IMG/VR virus record: IMGVR_UViG_3300016484_000154
Coordinates: 1-28,534 of that record
DNA length: 28,534 nt
Strand: one strand, 5' to 3'
From: a virus
Numbering within the stretch: the stretch's first letter is position 1; each line of letters opens with the position of its first letter. Below the pieces are notes generated by a model, which was not told the origin of the DNA, did no database searches, and saw only the letters and a list, made by a program, of their open reading frames with translations. The translations under genes were made by a program, and so were the position numbers. Shown here piece by piece: positions 7,551-28,386 of this stretch.

Positions 7551-7974
7551 ATGGATTTCCCTTTTGGGAATTGTTTTAACTTTTTTTATGCCTATTACCG
7601 GAATGGTTTTAGCGGTTGGTTTTGCTATCTTTTTAGACACGGTAACGGGTATTTGGAAAAGCCGTAAAAACGGAGTTCCTATCCGTTCACGTAGGTTAAG
7701 CGCGGTAATATCTAAAATGTTTTTATACCAATTAACAATAATTCTTTTTTTTCTTATTGATTGGTTTATTCTAAATGACATTTTAAAATCTATCTTTACA
7801 ACTGAATTACTATTAACCAAGGTACTTTCGTTGGTACTTATTTCAATCGAGGTTGTAAGCATTAACGAAAATTACAAAGCCGTTAGAGGCATTGACCTTT
7901 GGGCAAGTTTGAAAAAATTATTAAGTCGAGCAAAAGAATTAAAAAATGATACCGACGAAATTAGATACCAGTAA
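7507..7974 (+). CDS. Holin (Phage_holin_4_1 / TcdE-like pattern)
   Basis: Multi-TMD 155-aa protein with FLDTVTG and IEVVSINEN motifs, characteristic of this holin family. Immediately upstream of the endolysin. Confidence 0.65.
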   Translation: MKATATILLTTIQTKWISLLGIVLTFFMPITGMVLAVGFAIFLDTVTGIWKSRKNGVPIRSRRLSAVISKMFLYQLTIILFFLIDWFILNDILKSIFTTELLLTKVLSLVLISIEVVSINENYKAVRGIDLWASLKKLLSRAKELKNDTDEIRYQ

Positions 7975-10004: not shown

Positions 10005-10034
10005 TGTTAAAAATCGAAAAAAAATGTTAAAAAT
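10005..10034 (+). promoter_or_regulatory. Two direct TGTTAAAAAT repeats (candidate operator or UP-like element)
   Basis: Identical 10-mers at 10005-10014 and 10025-10034, 20 bp apart, abutting the -33 element of the early promoter. Related copies occur upstream of the 13951 promoter. Confidence 0.45.
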
Positions 10035-10067: not shown

Positions 10068-10103
10068 CGTATGATTATTCACGAAACAATTAAAAAAAAC
10101 GCT

Positions 10104-11547: not shown

Positions 11548-11589
11548 CACGGGATTTTAAGGGCTTTTTTTATTGATTAAATTTTTTTT

Positions 11590-13378: not shown

Positions 13379-13897
13379 ATGAAATGTAAAAACTGCAAAG
13401 CCGTATTTACGCCCGTTAGATTTAATCAAAAATTTTGTTTAAAATCCGAATGCGTCCGTGTTTGGATAGAATCGGAAAAGGAAAAACAATGGAAGAAAAA
13501 AAAGAAGGTATTGAAAGACGAACTGCAAACCTTACCCGAACTTCTTAAATTAGCGCAAATAACGTTTAATAAGTACATTCGATTACGAGACAAAGATAAA
13601 CCTTGCGTAAGTTGTGAAAAGCCGTTAGGCGCAAAATTTGATGCGGGGCATTACTTCAGTATGGGAGGGCATAAGGCGGTAACATTTGACGAAGAAAATG
13701 TACACGGACAATGTGTAACGTGTAACCAACACAAACACGGAAACTTATTGCATTATCAAATAGGAATACAAAAAAGAATCGGAGCGGATAGATTAATAGA
13801 ATTACACGCCCGTGCATATGAAACAAAAAAATGGACCCGGGACGAACTAAACGAAATAATTAAAATTTATAAATCAAAAATAAAAAATAAATTTTAA
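13379..13897 (+). CDS. ninG: NinG/Rap-family recombination endonuclease
   Basis: N-terminal CxxC (MKCKNCK), FNKYIRLRD, CVSC, AGHYFS, HGQCVTCNQHKHGN: the pattern of lambda NinG-like proteins. Confidence 0.75.
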   Translation: MKCKNCKAVFTPVRFNQKFCLKSECVRVWIESEKEKQWKKKKKVLKDELQTLPELLKLAQITFNKYIRLRDKDKPCVSCEKPLGAKFDAGHYFSMGGHKAVTFDEENVHGQCVTCNQHKHGNLLHYQIGIQKRIGADRLIELHARAYETKKWTRDELNEIIKIYKSKIKNKF

Positions 13898-18321: not shown

Positions 18322-18745
18322 AATACATTCACCAGAACACCTTTGGGAACTATTCACGGAGTATAAGAGACACGTAAAAAATAATCCTATTCTAAAACAT
18401 ACTTTTGTAGGTAAAGAAGGTAGGAGCGAATATAGCGAATTAGAGCGCCCGTTAACCATAGAAGGGTTCGAATGTTATTGCGCGGATTTGGGAATAATAG
18501 GCGATTTAAGCCATTATTTTGCGAATACGAACGGAAGGTATAAGCGTTTTTTAACTATCGTTACGCGTATACGTAGGGAAGTTCGAAATGACCAAATCGG
18601 AGGTGGTATGGCGGGAATATATAACCCAAGTATTACGGCACGATTAAACAACCTTGTGGAAAAGAAAGAAATTACAAATGTAGAACAACCATTATTCCCC
18701 GATGTTTCGGAAGACAACAGCGATTCGCAAGATACTGAATCTTAA
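18299..18745 (+). CDS. terS: Terminase small subunit (gp3-packaging-like)
   Basis: GRPNKIHSPEHLWELFTEYKRHV ... RPLTIEGFECYC ... IRREVRNDQIGGGMAGIYNPSITARLNNL fits the small-terminase pattern. Directly upstream of and overlapping terL. Confidence 0.65.
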   Translation: MGHGRPNKIHSPEHLWELFTEYKRHVKNNPILKHTFVGKEGRSEYSELERPLTIEGFECYCADLGIIGDLSHYFANTNGRYKRFLTIVTRIRREVRNDQIGGGMAGIYNPSITARLNNLVEKKEITNVEQPLFPDVSEDNSDSQDTES

Positions 18746-19862
18746 AAAACGGATTAAGATTATTCAAGGCGGTACGAGCGCGGGTAAGACGTTCGGAATA
18801 ATTCCCGTGTTAATCGACAAAGCCGCAAGGCACGAAGGTTTGGAAATATCAATTGTCGCGGAAACGATTCCCCATTTACGAAGGGGTGCGCTCAAAGATT
18901 TCCTAAAAATAATGAAATGGACGGGGCGATTCTTCGAAGATAGGTTTAACAAATCTTTACTGCGTTACGAGTTCGCCAATGGAAGCGTTATCGAATTCTT
19001 TTCCGCAGATGATTCGAGTAAACTACGGGGTGCAAGGCGCGACATTCTTTATATCAACGAATGCAATAATGTTACCTTTGATTCTTATAACGAACTTGCT
19101 ATTCGAACACGAAAGGAGGTTTATTTAGATTTTAACCCCGCTAATGAATTTTGGGTACACACCGAATTAAAGAACGAACCCGACTCCGATTTTCTTATTC
19201 TTACTTACAAAGACAACGAAGCGTTAGACCAATCAATTATCGAACAAATAGAAAAGAACAAAGAGAAAGCTAAAACGTCTACCTATTGGGCTAATTGGTG
19301 GAAGGTTTACGGCGAAGGGCAGTTAGGAATGTTAGAGGGGGTAGTGTTCTCAAATTGGAAACAAATAGACACGATACCCAAAGAAGCAAAGTTGTTAGGA
19401 ATAGGGTTGGACTTTGGTTACACAAATGACCCGACTGCGATTATAGAAATATACAATTACAACGGGCAAAGGATAGTTAACGAGTTAGCCTACCAAACAG
19501 GGTTACTAAATAGCGAAATAGCCAAGCTGCTACCAAAACACGTACCCGTTTACGCGGATAGTTCCGAACCCAAATCAATAGATGAGATTAAACGCTTTGG
19601 AATAACGATTAAAGGAGTAACCAAAGGCAAGGATTCGATTAACTACGGAATAGATGTTATCCAGCGTAACGAATACTTAGTAACTGCGAATAGTGGTAAT
19701 TTAATCAAAGAATTACGCTCGTATGTTTGGGATACCGACAAACAAGGGAAACGCTTAAACAAACCAATAGATTTTAATAATCACGCTATAGATGCATTCA
19801 GGTATCACGAAATGGAAACGTTAGGCATAGGAGCAAATTACGGAAGTTATGCAATCAGGTAA
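18702..19862 (+). CDS. terL: Terminase large subunit (PBSX / Terminase_3-like)
   Basis: Walker A GGTSAGKT, Walker B-like ILYINE, and a C-terminal nuclease-like part (GLDFGYTNDPTA ... YADSSEP ... HAIDAFRY). Confidence 0.85.
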   Translation: MFRKTTAIRKILNLKKRIKIIQGGTSAGKTFGIIPVLIDKAARHEGLEISIVAETIPHLRRGALKDFLKIMKWTGRFFEDRFNKSLLRYEFANGSVIEFFSADDSSKLRGARRDILYINECNNVTFDSYNELAIRTRKEVYLDFNPANEFWVHTELKNEPDSDFLILTYKDNEALDQSIIEQIEKNKEKAKTSTYWANWWKVYGEGQLGMLEGVVFSNWKQIDTIPKEAKLLGIGLDFGYTNDPTAIIEIYNYNGQRIVNELAYQTGLLNSEIAKLLPKHVPVYADSSEPKSIDEIKRFGITIKGVTKGKDSINYGIDVIQRNEYLVTANSGNLIKELRSYVWDTDKQGKRLNKPIDFNNHAIDAFRYHEMETLGIGANYGSYAIR

Positions 19863-20031
19863 AACCGACGATATGTTAGTAATGATTCGAGTAATCGAGG
19901 AATACATTTACGAACGTAAGGGGGTAAGGGTGCAAATAGTTTTTAACAACCTCGCAAGGTTTGCAGTTCATTTTGATATGCTTTTAAAGGCTTACCATTT
20001 TGTTTTGGAATACAAAAACACGAATAAATAG
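19849..20031 (+). CDS. Hypothetical protein
   Basis: 60-aa ORF overlapping the terL end by 14 nt. Confidence 0.35.
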   Translation: MQSGKTDDMLVMIRVIEEYIYERKGVRVQIVFNNLARFAVHFDMLLKAYHFVLEYKNTNK

Positions 20032-20041
20032 TTAAATAGAT

Positions 20042-20797
20042 ATGCAATTAGAATTAACATTACCAAGTTCAATTAGCGAAATACCCTTAGTGAACTACCA
20101 AAAATTCCTAAAGGTTCAAGAAAATTCCAATGACGAAGAATTTATAGTTCAAAAAATGATTGAAATATTTTGCGGAATCCAGTTAAAGGATGTCGTGAAA
20201 ATTAAGTACACGGAGTTACAAGGCTTGTTAGAACATTTCCAAAAGATATTTAGCGTAAAGCCAAATTTTTACCAAACGTGGAAATATAAGGATATGGAAT
20301 TTGGATTTATTCCTAACCTTGAAAATATAACGTGGGGCGAATATATCGATTTAGAACACCATTTAAACAATTGGGACGATTACCACAAAGCAATGGCGGT
20401 GATGTATAGACCAATTATTAAACGGGAAAAAGAACGTTACCAAATAGCGCCATATACGGCAAGCGAGGAATTTCACGAGTTTATGAAATTTATTCCAATG
20501 GAAATAGCGATTTCAGCGCGGGTTTTTTTTTACAATTTAGGAGCAGAATTGTTAAGGAGTACAAGCAATTATTTGGAGACGATGAAAACGATGAACCGGA
20601 AAGAGCGCCGAGTTTTAATGAAAGGGAGCAATTTAATAAGCAATGGGGGTGGTATTCAAGCATTTACGCAGTTGCTCACGGAGATGTCCGACGATTTGAT
20701 GAAATTACAAACTTACAATTACATCAATGCCTCACTTTCCTTACCTTCGAAAAGCAAAAAAACGAAATCGAAGAAATCGAATTTAAAAGAAATATGA
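20042..20797 (+). CDS. Tail-morphogenesis protein (chaperone candidate) with an alternative -1 frame C-terminus ending at 20805
   Basis: 251-aa frame-0 ORF with a T9 run at 20523-20531. The -1 frame is open from 20422 to the TGA at 20803-20805. See findings. Confidence 0.5.
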   Translation: MQLELTLPSSISEIPLVNYQKFLKVQENSNDEEFIVQKMIEIFCGIQLKDVVKIKYTELQGLLEHFQKIFSVKPNFYQTWKYKDMEFGFIPNLENITWGEYIDLEHHLNNWDDYHKAMAVMYRPIIKREKERYQIAPYTASEEFHEFMKFIPMEIAISARVFFYNLGAELLRSTSNYLETMKTMNRKERRVLMKGSNLISNGGGIQAFTQLLTEMSDDLMKLQTYNYINASLSLPSKSKKTKSKKSNLKEI

Positions 20798-20801
20798 AAA
20801 G

Positions 20802-21257
20802 ATGAAAGGATATTACGAATTAATCAAAGAATTAAAAAACCATTTTGACAATGACCCGTTGGTGAACACGGTAACGAACGGGGATATTTTCGATGTTGAT
20901 ATTTCCAAACAAACCATTTTCCCGCTGGTGCATACAATGGTAACGCAAGCGCAGTTCGAAAGCAACATCCAACGATTTACGTTAACTATTTTTGCGATGG
21001 ATATAACCGATAACGTAAAGGAGGAGGATAATACCAAATGGGAAACGAGAGACAATACTAACGATGCGTTAAATTCCACGTTGCAAATTTTGAACAGATG
21101 TTTTAAAATGCTAAAAAGCGGAAACCTTTACAACCTTAATTTTGTTGTTGAAGACGTACCAACGTGCGAACCATTTACCGAGCGATTCGAAAATAATTTA
21201 GTTGGTTGGGCGATGACATTAAACATAATTTGCCCCAATGAAATGACCATTTGTTAA
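20802..21257 (+). CDS. Hypothetical virion protein (possible neck or tail-completion protein)
   Basis: 151-aa ORF in the tail block. Assignment is by position only. Confidence 0.4.
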   Translation: MKGYYELIKELKNHFDNDPLVNTVTNGDIFDVDISKQTIFPLVHTMVTQAQFESNIQRFTLTIFAMDITDNVKEEDNTKWETRDNTNDALNSTLQILNRCFKMLKSGNLYNLNFVVEDVPTCEPFTERFENNLVGWAMTLNIICPNEMTIC

Positions 21258-25007: not shown

Positions 25008-25184
25008 ATGATAGTAAAACAAATCATTAAATTGTTATCCGCTGGCGAACATTTAGGGCAAAGCGAGATAATAGAAATCGCAAAAGGTAAATACGAAATC
25101 AAACCTACGTTGAAAGGGGCGTACAAACAAAAGGTTAGAGAGTTATATATAAAAAAGGCAAATGGCGGAAAAACGGATAATTGA
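25008..25184 (+). CDS. Hypothetical 58-aa protein
   Basis: Below the ORF-track cutoff. Hand translation: MIVKQIIKLLSAGEHLGQSEIIEIAKGKYEIKPTLKGAYKQKVRELYIKKANGGKTDN. It fills the gap before the tape-measure gene and overlaps that gene's start. Confidence 0.4.
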   Translation: MIVKQIIKLLSAGEHLGQSEIIEIAKGKYEIKPTLKGAYKQKVRELYIKKANGGKTDN

Positions 25185-27462
25185 ACTTGAGGTTAAAGAT
25201 AATACGCAAAGTTTAAAGGCGCAGTTAAGGGAGGCACAATCCGAAGTCCAAAAATTAGCCGATAAATACGGCGCAACATCAAAAGAAGCAATCGAAGCGG
25301 CAAAACGCGCCGCGGACATAAAAGATAGAATCGGAGACGCCAAAGCGTTAACGGATGCATTTAACCCCGACGCAAAATTTAAAGCATTAAGCGCATCGTT
25401 AAGCGGTGTTGCTGGTGGATTTAGCGCGGTAACGGGAGCAATGGGTTTACTTGGGGTGGAATCTCAAGACGTTCAACAAATGATGCTGAAGGTGCAAAGC
25501 GCGATGGCGTTAAGTCAAGGTTTGCAATCGTTAGGAGAGGCAAAAGATTCATTTAAACAATTGGGGGCAGTTGTTAATTCAGCTTTTGCGGGAATGACAA
25601 GCGCGGGCAAAGCCTTTGCAATTACTGGAATTGGCTTAGCAATTACCGCCGTTGGTGTTTTGGTAACTGCGTTTGGTAATTTTGGAAAAAAGGAAGTTGA
25701 AACATACGATCAATGGCGCGAGAAACAAGACAAGGTAAACGAAGCAACGCAAAAGCATTTAGATTTACAATTTAAGCAATTAGAAAATGCCCGAAAAAAT
25801 GTAGACAAATTAACGGAGCAATACGATAGAGAAATAGCATTAGCGAGAGCGCGAGGTAATTCGGATTTAGCAGAAATAAAAACTAAAGAAAAACTAAATA
25901 CAATTATCAAAACCGAACAAGAAAACCGTAAACAATACGATGAAGCAGTAAAAAAAGCACGCGCGGAATTAAACCAACAAATTGGTTTTTCAATGCAACT
26001 TGAAAAACATTTAGCGGAATATGCGGAAAAAAGCCGTTTGGATGATGAATATAAGGGGCGCGCACGTGCGATATATAATGTTGGTTTAAAAGGCGAAATA
26101 ACAATAAACCAAAAAGCATTAGAACAAGCGCAAATGGTTTTAAGTTATAAAAGTGCGGTTGGGAAAATTGAAAAGAAAAATTTAGAAAACGCAAAAAGAC
26201 AAATTGCGGATTATGAGCATCAAACTAAACTAATTGAAAATTTAAAAAAATTAGGTGCGGAAAGAAATGTTATAGACAAAAGTATAGCGGATGCGCAAAA
26301 TGAAATAAATGTAATGAACGCAGCGGCAAATAAAGCGGCGGCGGAAAGAAATGCGGAATTGAAAAGAGAACGAGACGCAAATAATAAAGATATAAAAAGG
26401 CAAATTGAAGATGAAAAAAATAAAAGGATTGAGAACGAATTAGAACGAACAAAAAAAGAATTAGAAATAAATGCCCAAAGACGTAAAGAAGATTTAAACA
26501 AATTAAAAGCGGATGAAACACAAAAGAAACTTTTAAAAGAAGAAATTGATGCAACGTTAAAATTAGATTTACAAAAAGCAGAAAAGGATTATAATAAAAA
26601 AATCGATGAAATTGAGGAACAAAAAAGAAAGGATAAGTTAGAAAAAGAAAAAGAGTTACAAGAAAAAATTAAAGAAAATGAATTAAAAGAATCGGAACGT
26701 TTTTTATCCGACCAAGAAATAGTTATAACGTTATTAAACGATGGCTTAGAAAAGCAAATTGCAATTAGGAAACTGGCATACGACAAAGAACAAATCGATT
26801 TACAAAATAAATTAGACAATCAATTAATAACCGAAGAGCAATTCCAAGCATTATCGAGAAATAATTTTAAAAATTATAATAAAGGCGTTGCGGATGATAC
26901 AAAAAAAATTGATGAGGAAATGATGCAACACAAAATCGCGGTACAACAACAAGGTTTGGATTTAGCGTTGCAAGCAAACAATTTAATGAAAGATTTATTT
27001 GGAAAATCTAAAGGCGTACAAAAAACTGCAATTTTAGTAGAATCGGCGGTTGGTATTGCAAAAATGATTATATCAAATAAATTAGCAAATGCTGGTGCAT
27101 TAGCAACACCGCAAGCAATAGCAACAAGCGGAGCGGCGGCGGTTCCAGTTATTGCAATGAACAATATTTCAACGGGGTTAGGAATAGCGGCAAACATCGC
27201 AGCAACGGCAAAAGCGTTAAAGGAAATCGGCGCTGGTGGTGCGCCCCCTCCCGCCCCTTCAACATCCGGAGGTGGCGGTGGTGGTGGCGGTGGTTCAATG
27301 AGTAGCGGAATTGTTGCGCCTAATTTTAACGTGGTTGGTAATAATAACATCAACCAATTAGCGCAATTACAACAACAACCAATTAAAGCGTACGTAGTTG
27401 GTAGCGAGGTAACTACTCAACAATCGTTAGATAGAAATAGAATAGGAATAGGACAATTATAA
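25162..27462 (+). CDS. Tape measure protein candidate
   Basis: 766 aa. There is a long K/E-rich coiled-coil core. It is flanked by Gly/Ala-rich hydrophobic segments: GVAGGFSAVTGAMGLLG, AFAITGIGLAITAVGVLVTAFG and a C-terminal AAAVPVIAMNNISTGLGIAANIAA. A Gly9 run is also present. Confidence 0.55.
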   Translation: MAEKRIIELEVKDNTQSLKAQLREAQSEVQKLADKYGATSKEAIEAAKRAADIKDRIGDAKALTDAFNPDAKFKALSASLSGVAGGFSAVTGAMGLLGVESQDVQQMMLKVQSAMALSQGLQSLGEAKDSFKQLGAVVNSAFAGMTSAGKAFAITGIGLAITAVGVLVTAFGNFGKKEVETYDQWREKQDKVNEATQKHLDLQFKQLENARKNVDKLTEQYDREIALARARGNSDLAEIKTKEKLNTIIKTEQENRKQYDEAVKKARAELNQQIGFSMQLEKHLAEYAEKSRLDDEYKGRARAIYNVGLKGEITINQKALEQAQMVLSYKSAVGKIEKKNLENAKRQIADYEHQTKLIENLKKLGAERNVIDKSIADAQNEINVMNAAANKAAAERNAELKRERDANNKDIKRQIEDEKNKRIENELERTKKELEINAQRRKEDLNKLKADETQKKLLKEEIDATLKLDLQKAEKDYNKKIDEIEEQKRKDKLEKEKELQEKIKENELKESERFLSDQEIVITLLNDGLEKQIAIRKLAYDKEQIDLQNKLDNQLITEEQFQALSRNNFKNYNKGVADDTKKIDEEMMQHKIAVQQQGLDLALQANNLMKDLFGKSKGVQKTAILVESAVGIAKMIISNKLANAGALATPQAIATSGAAAVPVIAMNNISTGLGIAANIAATAKALKEIGAGGAPPPAPSTSGGGGGGGGGSMSSGIVAPNFNVVGNNNINQLAQLQQQPIKAYVVGSEVTTQQSLDRNRIGIGQL

Positions 27463-27465
27463 ATT

Positions 27466-28386
27466 ATGAAAATATTAGAATTAATTCTTGACGAAGAAAA
27501 CGAAGAAATGGGAGTTTATGCTATTTCCGTAGTAAACGATCCAGCAATAGGTGAAAACTTTGTAAAACTAAGCAACGAACAAATTACTTTTAGCACCATT
27601 GATAAAGAAAAAAAATTATTAATGGGTGCGGCATTAATACCGAACAAACAAATTTACCGACGCAATAAAAAGCACGGAGAATTTTACATTTACTTTTCCG
27701 AGGACACGGTAAGAAAAGCGAGCGAATTATTTTTTATCAACCACAACCAAAGCAACGCAACGTATGAACATTCTAAAACTTTGGAGGGAATGTCCGTTGT
27801 TGAAAGTTGGATAATCGAAGACGAACAAAAAGACAAATCTAAACTTTATGGTTTCGATTTACCAAAAGGAACTTGGATGATTTCGATGAAAGTAAACAAC
27901 GAAAACGTTTGGAACGATGTTAAAGAGGGTAAGGTAAAAGGATTTTCAATAGAAGGTTATTTTGCGGATAAATACGAAATGAGTTTGGAAACAAGTTTGC
28001 GCAAAACAATGGACGAAGAAAAAGAGTATTTAATCGAGCAAATCAAAAACGTATTAAAAGGAAATGAATTAGCGGAGGAATCATATAACGATTATCCAAG
28101 CGTTGTTAAACGAAACGCGCAACGTGGTATATTACTTAACGAAAAGAATGGTAATAAATGCGCGACGCAAGTTGGTAAAATACGCGCCCAGCAGTTAGCA
28201 AACGGCGAGAAAGTAAGTATTGAAACGATTAAAAGAATGTATAGTTATTTAAGCCGAGCGGAGGTATATTACAACCAAGGCGATAGCAATGATTGCGGTT
28301 ATATTTCTTATCTGCTTTGGGGCGGTAAAGCCGCATTAACTTGGTCGGAATCTAAATTAAAACAAATCGAAAATGGCAAAGGTTAA
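27466..28386 (+). CDS. XkdF-like prohead protease-domain protein
   Basis: The N-terminal half (GVYAISVVNDPAIGENF ... ESWIIEDE ... GTWMISMKVNNENVWNDVKEGKVKGFSIEG) fits the XkdF / Peptidase_S78_2 pattern by eye. It lies upstream of the scaffold and capsid genes across the window junction. Confidence 0.55.
   Translation: MKILELILDEENEEMGVYAISVVNDPAIGENFVKLSNEQITFSTIDKEKKLLMGAALIPNKQIYRRNKKHGEFYIYFSEDTVRKASELFFINHNQSNATYEHSKTLEGMSVVESWIIEDEQKDKSKLYGFDLPKGTWMISMKVNNENVWNDVKEGKVKGFSIEGYFADKYEMSLETSLRKTMDEEKEYLIEQIKNVLKGNELAEESYNDYPSVVKRNAQRGILLNEKNGNKCATQVGKIRAQQLANGEKVSIETIKRMYSYLSRAEVYYNQGDSNDCGYISYLLWGGKAALTWSESKLKQIENGKG

Follow-up and report, generated by a model that had tools for sequence, protein, structure and literature searches.

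A conserved run of nine thymines at the junction of two overlapping reading frames in a phage gene beside the terminase

Programmed frameshifting in phage late genes and RNA polymerase slippage at nine-base runs are both known already, and several such systems resemble the locus studied here: a run of nine thymines (T9) inside a 251-amino-acid (aa) open reading frame (ORF) of the IMG/VR virus record IMGVR_UViG_3300016484_000154, of which positions 1 to 28,534 were analysed (the window hereafter). Past the run, a start-less second frame at -1 encodes a conserved domain, and recoding of some kind very probably operates at T9, with RNA polymerase as its probable main agent. As judged by sequence comparison, the 88-codon overlap of the two frames is dual-coding, and both C-termini would be functional.

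The G/GT genes of phage lambda (Levin 1993; Xu, Hendrix and Duda 2004; reviewed in PMC5009743) are, like this one, part of a late operon of a tailed phage, with a common N-terminal part, a start-less second domain in the -1 frame and a slippery site without an obvious stimulator. The likeness extends to product length in a distant relative of the window, the cultured Nonlabens phage P12024L, where a short form (175 aa) stands beside a long one (~230 aa). Unlike lambda, the present family uses a T9-10 homopolymer instead of a G_GGA_AAG-type site, places the gene after the terminase gene and not between tail tube and tape measure, and has no match to chaperones; the zero-frame product of the window is also long, with 88 dual-coded codons and forms of 251 and 254 aa. 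In T7 10A/10B and the isoforms of Lactobacillus phage A2, a -1 shift likewise gives genes of the structural module an alternative C-terminus, but there the shift lies near the gene end and adds an extension without a long dual-coded overlap, and the sites are heptamers, some with stimulators, and not a homopolymer.

Two bacterial systems are closer in their slippery sequence. Thermus thermophilus dnaX (PMC5009743) shares a run of nine A/T that equals the RNA-DNA hybrid in length, nearby stops in the unused frame and, if slippage is transcriptional here, a mixed mRNA population that gives two proteins with a common N-terminus. It differs in being a cellular replication gene in which both shifted frames end at once (truncated gamma), whereas in this phage gene the frame reached by a +1-nucleotide slip encodes a 91-residue domain and the unshifted tail is under selection. 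Shigella flexneri mxiE (T9) and spa13 (Penno 2005, 2006; cited in PMC3711429 and PMC5009743) offer T9 inside a coding region, a longer functional product that requires polymerase slippage, and an extension whose end overlaps the start of the next gene (spa13/spa32), as is the case here. The unshifted mxiE product is short and probably useless; here, both products are full-size and conserved, and the T9 site is kept across far greater sequence divergence.

A literature search found no description of this T9 site, and the reference phage records list two hypothetical proteins in its place. What is new is the gene family, a homopolymer site kept from ~99% down to ~22% protein identity and across codon phases, and two full-length isoforms whose C-termini are overwritten over 60-90 codons with selection detectable on both. 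I tentatively propose that this could be the first family-wide programmed transcriptional slippage in a morphogenesis-region gene of double-stranded DNA phages, with T9 setting the isoform ratio in aquatic Bacteroidota phages, two isoforms plus a truncated third, C-termini dual-coded over 60-90 codons, and a family unrelated to known tail assembly chaperones.

The two reading frames at the T9 run

The features of this locus, the terminase and the downstream gene included, lie on the plus strand. The frame-0 ORF (20042-20797, stop TGA at 20795-20797) reads CGG GTT TTT TTT TAC across the T9 run at 20523-20531, which holds an in-phase U_UUU_UUU heptamer and is the frame-switch point. It starts with an alpha/beta domain common to both isoforms (the N domain hereafter; aa 1-160, 20042-20522) and continues past the run into a frame-0 tail, YNLGAELL...SKSKKTKSKKSNLKEI, a segment of which reads VLMKGSNLISNGGGIQAFTQLLTEMSDDLMK. 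In the -1 frame, 91 codons and a TGA (20530-20805) encode the alternative C-terminal domain, LQFRSRIVKEY...QFNKQWGWYSSIYAVAHGD...LTFLTFEKQKNEIE...NMKR, with QWGWYSSIYAVAHGDVR as one of its segments, and fusion to the N-terminal part gives 254 aa. Both frames are open and constrained from 20532 to 20797, as gauged below by synonymous diversity and redraw trials.

The -1 frame has no stop between 20422 and the TGA at 20803-20805 and no ATG, GTG or TTG ahead of the run; its sole ATG stands four codons before its end, and it was missing from the ORF list because it has no start codon until that point. An ATGA joins this TGA to the start codon of the next gene (20802-21257), which stands 5 nt downstream of the frame-0 stop. 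The original prediction, which had been made from the letters of the window, had pointed out most of these features, and its coordinates, frames, absence of start codons and ATGA overlap held up on recomputation, down to a hand translation of the -1 peptide that was exactly the same as mine. Its figure of 127 open -1 codons needed trimming: the ~92 codons past the run stood, while the 34 before it (20422-20522) are incidental and no part of the feature, with the -1 frame closing 0-33 codons before the run in relatives.

The openness of both frames had also been called unexpected by chance, which proved right, although the stop rate of 6-7% per codon behind that argument was too low. Across 6866 codons of the window's other genes, the off-frame stop density was 8.5-9%, and the longest off-frame open stretches were 70 and 74 codons. 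When the -1 peptide was held fixed and synonymous codons were redrawn according to genome usage, frame 0 was equally open in 0.1-0.25% of trials; the reverse redraw, with the frame-0 peptide fixed, left the -1 frame equally open in at most 0.005%.

T9 is the single longest homopolymer of the 28.5-kb window. Runs of A9 or more number zero against ~2.4 expected from composition (37% A), which suggests that runs of hybrid length are avoided across the window apart from the recoding site. The next-longest runs are A8 (10017-10024, 10092-10099, 13496-13503, 26901-26908 and 27608-27615), T8 (7745-7752 and 11582-11589) and C8 (21512-21519).

Conservation of the run and of both C-termini

A query in which the N-terminal part and the -1 peptide were fused, as if the run were T10, retrieved 3264 database relatives. 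At the DNA level, I compared 80 IMG/VR loci of the window clade (N domain at 60-99% identity), 160 loci from two other clades (P0010 and P0081), 18 loci from bacterial genomes or metagenome-assembled genomes (MAGs), and the Nonlabens phage P12024L. The run was exactly T9 in 236 of the 244 loci of the first set, which spans the three clades, and T10 with the C-domain still in -1 in three more. T9 or T10 was found in 17 of the distant genome-derived loci (31-97% identity), the one exception being a MAG locus at a contig edge, and in 257/264 loci overall. The Nonlabens phage, at ~22% identity, has T9 at the same place (ILFFYHLG versus RVFFYNLG in the window); wider sampling of the Nonlabens-like clade gave 2 loci only. 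The run was met in all three codon phases (xTT TTT TTT Txx, xxT TTT TTT TTG and TTT TTT TTT Txx), and the bases flanking it vary among loci.

The original prediction had named a miscalled T10 as the finding that would reduce the locus to a single 254-aa product; this did not materialise. Seven near-identical contigs from different samples all carry T9, and an exact-pattern scan of IMG/VR for the commonest flank returned T9 at least 120 times, T10 twice and T8 never. One of these two T10 loci was scored, and its C-domain is still reached only via a shift.

The WGWY domain lay in the -1 frame relative to the N domain at every scored locus, and no ATG was present between the run and the WGW core in 220/220 loci from the three clades. 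Seven loci have a TAG of the -1 frame directly before the run, which leaves the T's as the only point of entry to that frame. Alignment of the domain (A1) gave 40 invariant columns, and its invariant positions include QF..WGWY..IY..A.G......L..L.FEK.K..E. An AlphaFold model of a fused homologue (overall predicted local distance difference test score, pLDDT, 83; predicted template modelling score 0.76) has a long helix across the slip site, then an acidic disordered linker and then the -1 domain as three helices at pLDDT 85-90, in keeping with the earlier impression that the -1 peptide resembles real protein. The N domain reached pLDDT 80-90 in a model of the frame-0 protein.

In P12024L (L001:4001-4695; JQ823123 23946-24640; also NC_018272) the two parts are annotated as separate hypothetical proteins, gp40 (175 aa) and gp41 (55 aa), the latter homologous to the -1 C-domain. 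T9 lies at L001 4444-4452, and from there on the -1 frame is open and conserved (FFLSFRERL), which would imply a joined gp40-41 product of ~230 aa.

The unshifted frame is open past the run for 73-93 codons in the window clade, 86-92 in P0010, 61-68 in P0081, 57-90 in the distant genomes and 28 in the Nonlabens phage. Most database relatives are frame-0 proteins of 242-256 aa, including a 94%-identical cluster on 12 contigs, and a minority of 250-256 aa carry the -1 peptide in frame; the layout of N domain plus frame-0 tail was seen in P0004 and about 90 other homologues. Among the best 150 of 3447 family representatives (clusters at 50% identity), 117 joined the N domain to another tail (22-99 residues, median 62, at a [VLI]FF[YW] joint) and 11 had the fused form.

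Selection on the frame-0 tail was assessed through nucleotide diversity. The N domain has an ordinary coding pattern (0.19/0.14/0.49 by codon position). Third-position diversity of the -1 frame fell from the N domain into the overlap from 0.49 to 0.34 in the window clade, 0.44 to 0.31 in P0010 and 0.41 to 0.19 in P0081, and in P0081 it returned to 0.41 across the 19 codons past the frame-0 stop. The drop of 30-55% is thus confined to the frame overlap. Codon degeneracy was rejected as its cause, since the drop recurs in the 2-, 4- and 6-fold codon classes taken one by one, at columns where the amino acid is conserved. Stop avoidance alone was rejected as well: a Gibbs simulation in which frame 0 merely avoided stops predicted a loss of 1-7%. 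The amino-acid sequence of frame 0 is therefore constrained, which amounts to true dual coding. The redraw test agreed in the window and P0010 clades (P <=0.0025) and gave P = 0.03-0.17 in P0081. The homologue alignment and synonymous-rate check proposed in the original prediction had been meant to show which frame, or both, is kept downstream of the run; both are. Its central idea of two near-equal products with different C-termini reached by a slip likewise stood, given the T9 counts, the conserved -1 domain and the in-frame T10 and T7 fusions. The low-complexity end that it had noted in the frame-0 tail is there, and the tail has low pLDDT, but purifying selection acts on this sequence, so it cannot be dismissed as junk.

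Six fused proteins were traced to their contigs, which carry T10 in five cases and T7 in one; T10 and T7 contigs occur in JGI 3300075144 and 3300072488 and in ENA ERZ28548085 and ERZ25068665. All are singletons with relatives at 95-99% identity that have T9, in all six the other frame is open for 65-102 codons, and two have record names ('pilon', '1.32x') that suggest a long-read or very low-coverage assembly. These contigs are errors or short-lived variants and not the normal state. Five database proteins (P0047, P0064, P0074, P0079 and P0087) that begin in the frame-0 tail and enter the -1 domain 3-50 residues on may be real variants or errors; an indel anywhere in the overlap yields such a chimeric ORF because both frames are open.

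Several loci bear on the hosts, which, judged by cultured relatives and genome matches, are Bacteroidota. T9 with a -1-frame C-domain occurs in the isolate Galbibacter pacificus CMA-7 (NZ_JAPMUA010000002, 396176-402900) and on a 467-kb contig of a Bacteroidota MAG, both of which are integrated prophages, as they lie inside long bacterial contigs. Short phage-like contigs with the gene, two from MAG 'Candidatus Fonsibacter lacus' and one from a PVC group MAG, are probably mis-binned viral contigs and no evidence on hosts. The contig-edge exception, a Lishizhenia MAG locus (JBMYYC010000021), has a run broken by a C (T8 C TTTT); no -1 C-domain could be detected in it, and it could be a decayed copy.

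Competing explanations and the level of slippage

Database proteins of 250-256 aa with both parts fused, on contigs with T10 or T7, together with the proneness of homopolymers to error, could be taken to mean that the true run is T10 and encodes one 254-aa protein. Such a miscall has next to no chance of being the explanation against T9 in seven near-identical contigs of different samples and in 236/244 loci, a single flank that gives T9 at least 120 times versus T10 twice, fused cases that are singletons (two with names typical of long-read or low-coverage assemblies), and selection acting on the frame-0 tail. A real alternation at the DNA level, with replication slippage toggling genomes between T9 and T10 so that each makes one isoform, would fit the mutability of poly-T tracts in replication (PMC3711429) and the two open frames retained in the rare T10 and T7 contigs. 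It is nevertheless very unlikely: at least 97% of assemblies are T9, no lineage is fixed for the fusion, both isoforms would seldom share one infected cell, and the variation in run length among close relatives that contingency loci normally have was not seen. The GenBank and RefSeq entries for gp40 and gp41 treat the -1 domain as a small gene in its own right that initiates independently (an ATG stands 25 codons past the run). This is extremely improbable, as the 220/220 loci without an ATG before the core, the lack of ATG, GTG and TTG there in the window and a -1 frame that is open and conserved right from the run, in Nonlabens too, all speak against it. It is, finally, improbable, though to a lesser degree, that the fused product alone matters and the frame-0 tail is a by-product that carries ribosomes to the next gene for coupling or to avoid polarity. 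The frame-0 stop 5 nt ahead of the next ATG in the window, the low pLDDT and low-complexity end of the tail, its mere 28 codons in the Nonlabens phage and the P = 0.03-0.17 of the P0081 redraws would suit this explanation, but stop avoidance predicts a diversity loss of 1-7% and not 30-55%, in P0081 ~22 codons separate the end of frame 0 from the next gene and it is at that end that synonymous suppression stops, and with a useless frame 0 a T10 run should sweep to fixation, of which there is no sign.

How the frame is switched was weighed between polymerase and ribosome. Bacterial RNA polymerase slips efficiently on nine A or T, which matches the 9-10-bp hybrid, and slippage transcripts with extra bases occur in decreasing proportion (PMC5009743); slippage of the E. 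coli enzyme is biased to poly(T) (PMC6260861), and MxiE uses T runs longer than 8 (PMC3711429). With the threshold of ~9 taken from PMC5009743 and PMC3711429, two features of transcriptional slippage were found here: a T/A run of about nine or more at the junction, and its retention across phases and flanks with no RNA stimulator. RNAalifold gave 0 pairs near the site across 42 diverse sequences, and no stimulatory fold was found in the stretches upstream and downstream of the run, which fold more weakly than shuffles (z-scores +1.0 and +0.7). T9 as the tail of an intrinsic terminator was rejected for want of a hairpin. Programmed ribosomal -1 frameshifting on U_UUU_UUU as the main or only route, with faithful transcripts and a tandem tRNA-Phe slip to ...VFF-LQFR..., is the most serious rival, though a less likely one. 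In its favour, every locus has the in-phase X_XXY_YYZ heptamer irrespective of run phase, the C-domain is always at -1, and stimulator-free -1 frameshifting is well documented in genes of tailed phages (PMC5009743). Against it, there is no downstream stem-loop, pseudoknot or covariation, and U_UUU_UUU is a weak shifter in E. coli, far poorer than A_AAA_AAG (PMC5009743); T7 would suffice, yet 9-10 T's are kept in ~260 loci and no T7 or T8 lineages were found, and bacterial RNA polymerase is expected to slip on T9 regardless. The lack of RNA structure, the published slippage on runs of nine, the weak shifting on U_UUU_UUU and a +1 slip that leads to the conserved frame are the reasons why polymerase slippage is favoured, and the addition of one U at T9 by RNA polymerase is probably the main route.

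According to the polymerase-slippage model, standard decoding would yield the 251-aa frame-0 protein, with a helical tail and a basic disordered end. Slippage at T9 would yield the 254-aa protein (...ARVFF-LQFRS...) with the three-helix WGWY domain, 163 N-terminal residues being common to both isoforms. The host RNA polymerase would realign on the 9-bp rU:dA hybrid and insert an extra U, after which ribosomes would read the -1 frame normally. A +1-nucleotide slip, expected to be the commonest event, would lead into the -1 frame, where the conserved domain always lies, while slips of +2 or -1 nucleotides would run into the +1-frame TAG three codons past the run (20538-20540, within a conserved TTTAGG) and give a truncated product; the +1 frame closes after 5-7 codons in 238/243 scored loci, after 3 in two and after at least 26 in three. 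The identical protein would result from a tandem -1 slip of the ribosome on U_UUU_UUU, which may contribute.

A number of points weigh against polymerase slippage, or against dual coding. T9 holds an in-phase U_UUU_UUU in every codon phase, so a ribosomal shift is possible at all loci, and the level at which the slip occurs, like its efficiency, is something I infer. The published slippage data come from other bacteria, and the hosts here are Bacteroidota with their own RNA polymerase. Amino acids ([VLI]FF[YW] in frame 0, FFL in frame -1) also fix the outermost T at either end of the run, and exact conservation of T9 is therefore no proof of selection on its length. The model of the frame-0 tail is weak, with helices to about residue 219 and a disordered basic end over which pLDDT falls from 69 to 30, and the frame-0 conservation is in part imposed by the -1 frame, NGxGI being the counterpart of WGWY. 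One locus (IMGVR_UViG_3300009068_000961) has a nonsense codon at -1 codon 44 past the run (KQW*WYQS), which replaces the invariant Gly of WGWY in an otherwise intact domain and is read here as a lone nonsense variant or a sequencing error.

If recoding operates as proposed, hundreds to thousands of phage genomes and prophages, among them the reference Nonlabens phages, would be mis-annotated at this gene: some would list a single ORF that ends in the wrong tail, others a pair of genes or a pseudogene. Gene callers and pipelines would remove the signal wherever they 'fix' homopolymers. A deeply conserved, stimulator-free homopolymer with hundreds of natural variants in multiple phases may help to separate polymerase from ribosomal slippage. 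It would also bring programmed slippage to the Bacteroidota, a group set apart from the models E. coli and Thermus by its translation initiation and its polymerase, and the Galbibacter pacificus isolate could serve as an experimental system. As a natural example of dual coding the long overlap would be a clean one, since selection can be measured on both frames, and the 3447 clusters point to a two-isoform factor beside the terminase in a large group of phages from fresh and marine waters.

Gene family and genomic neighbourhood

The upstream neighbour is the large terminase subunit (TerL; 18702-19862; Pfam Terminase_3 and Terminase_3C), and the order of TerL followed by the recoded gene is also found in the Nonlabens phage and in metagenomic relatives. 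The downstream gene, which overlaps the -1-frame TGA, encodes 151 aa (20802-21257; PHROG 30964, unknown function), and is followed by ORFs of 186, 361 and 709 aa, also of unknown function, a 766-aa tape-measure-like protein and an XkdF-type protease. The order continues at the window start with genes for a capsid-like protein, portal and tail protein, then holin and endolysin for lysis. The setting is thus the morphogenesis region. The original prediction had put the gene in a tail block and invoked lambda G/GT as its context, which was not upheld, as the gene upstream is the terminase, the tape-measure-like gene is four genes further on and no chaperone match was found.

The recoded gene belongs to PHROG 32199, to which no function is assigned. 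Neither isoform matched Pfam or NCBIfam, and apart from the terminase, neighbours and PHROG gave only unknown function. Profile and single-sequence searches of the PDB with the gene and four of its neighbours returned nothing, blastn of the region against GenBank phages found no match, and Foldseek of the fused model against the PDB gave a meaningless best E of 2.4. All Foldseek hits in BFVD were uncharacterised; they came from uncultured phages, Nonlabens phage P12024S and Flavobacterium phage 6H. The family and structure check of both C-termini suggested along with the original prediction thus succeeded in part: the -1 domain folds confidently, while the frame-0 tail has low pLDDT and no known family emerged.

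Membership in a tail assembly chaperone family was not supported by any sequence or fold match to Phage_TAC_* or gpG-like structures; Phage_TAC_7 scored E = 0.03 in 1/22 members, below threshold. The order tail tube, chaperone, tape measure was not found either, and with neighbours unannotated this makes the order odd rather than decisive. A start-less -1 ORF at an in-phase heptamer (T_TTT_TTT) is present, as in G/GT, while a short zero-frame product is absent from the window (251 versus 254 aa) and seen in Nonlabens only (28 codons). By analogy with chaperone pairs, a two-form assembly factor is the likely role of the gene, and that it would work like G/GT is a reasonable functional analogy.

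Between the terminase and the recoded gene lies a 60-aa ORF (19849-20031) that overlaps the terminase end by 14 nt, stops 10 nt before the recoded gene and has no family match; similar ORFs of 54-59 aa stand at the same place in relatives. The window is about a whole phage genome (relatives measure 29-32 kb) with an unusual order of late genes. The 766-aa protein (25162-27462), which matched no annotated family, has an N-terminal coiled coil, Gly/Ala-rich hydrophobic segments, a long Lys/Glu-rich coiled coil and nine glycines in a row close to its C-terminus, and looks like a tape measure or ejection protein.

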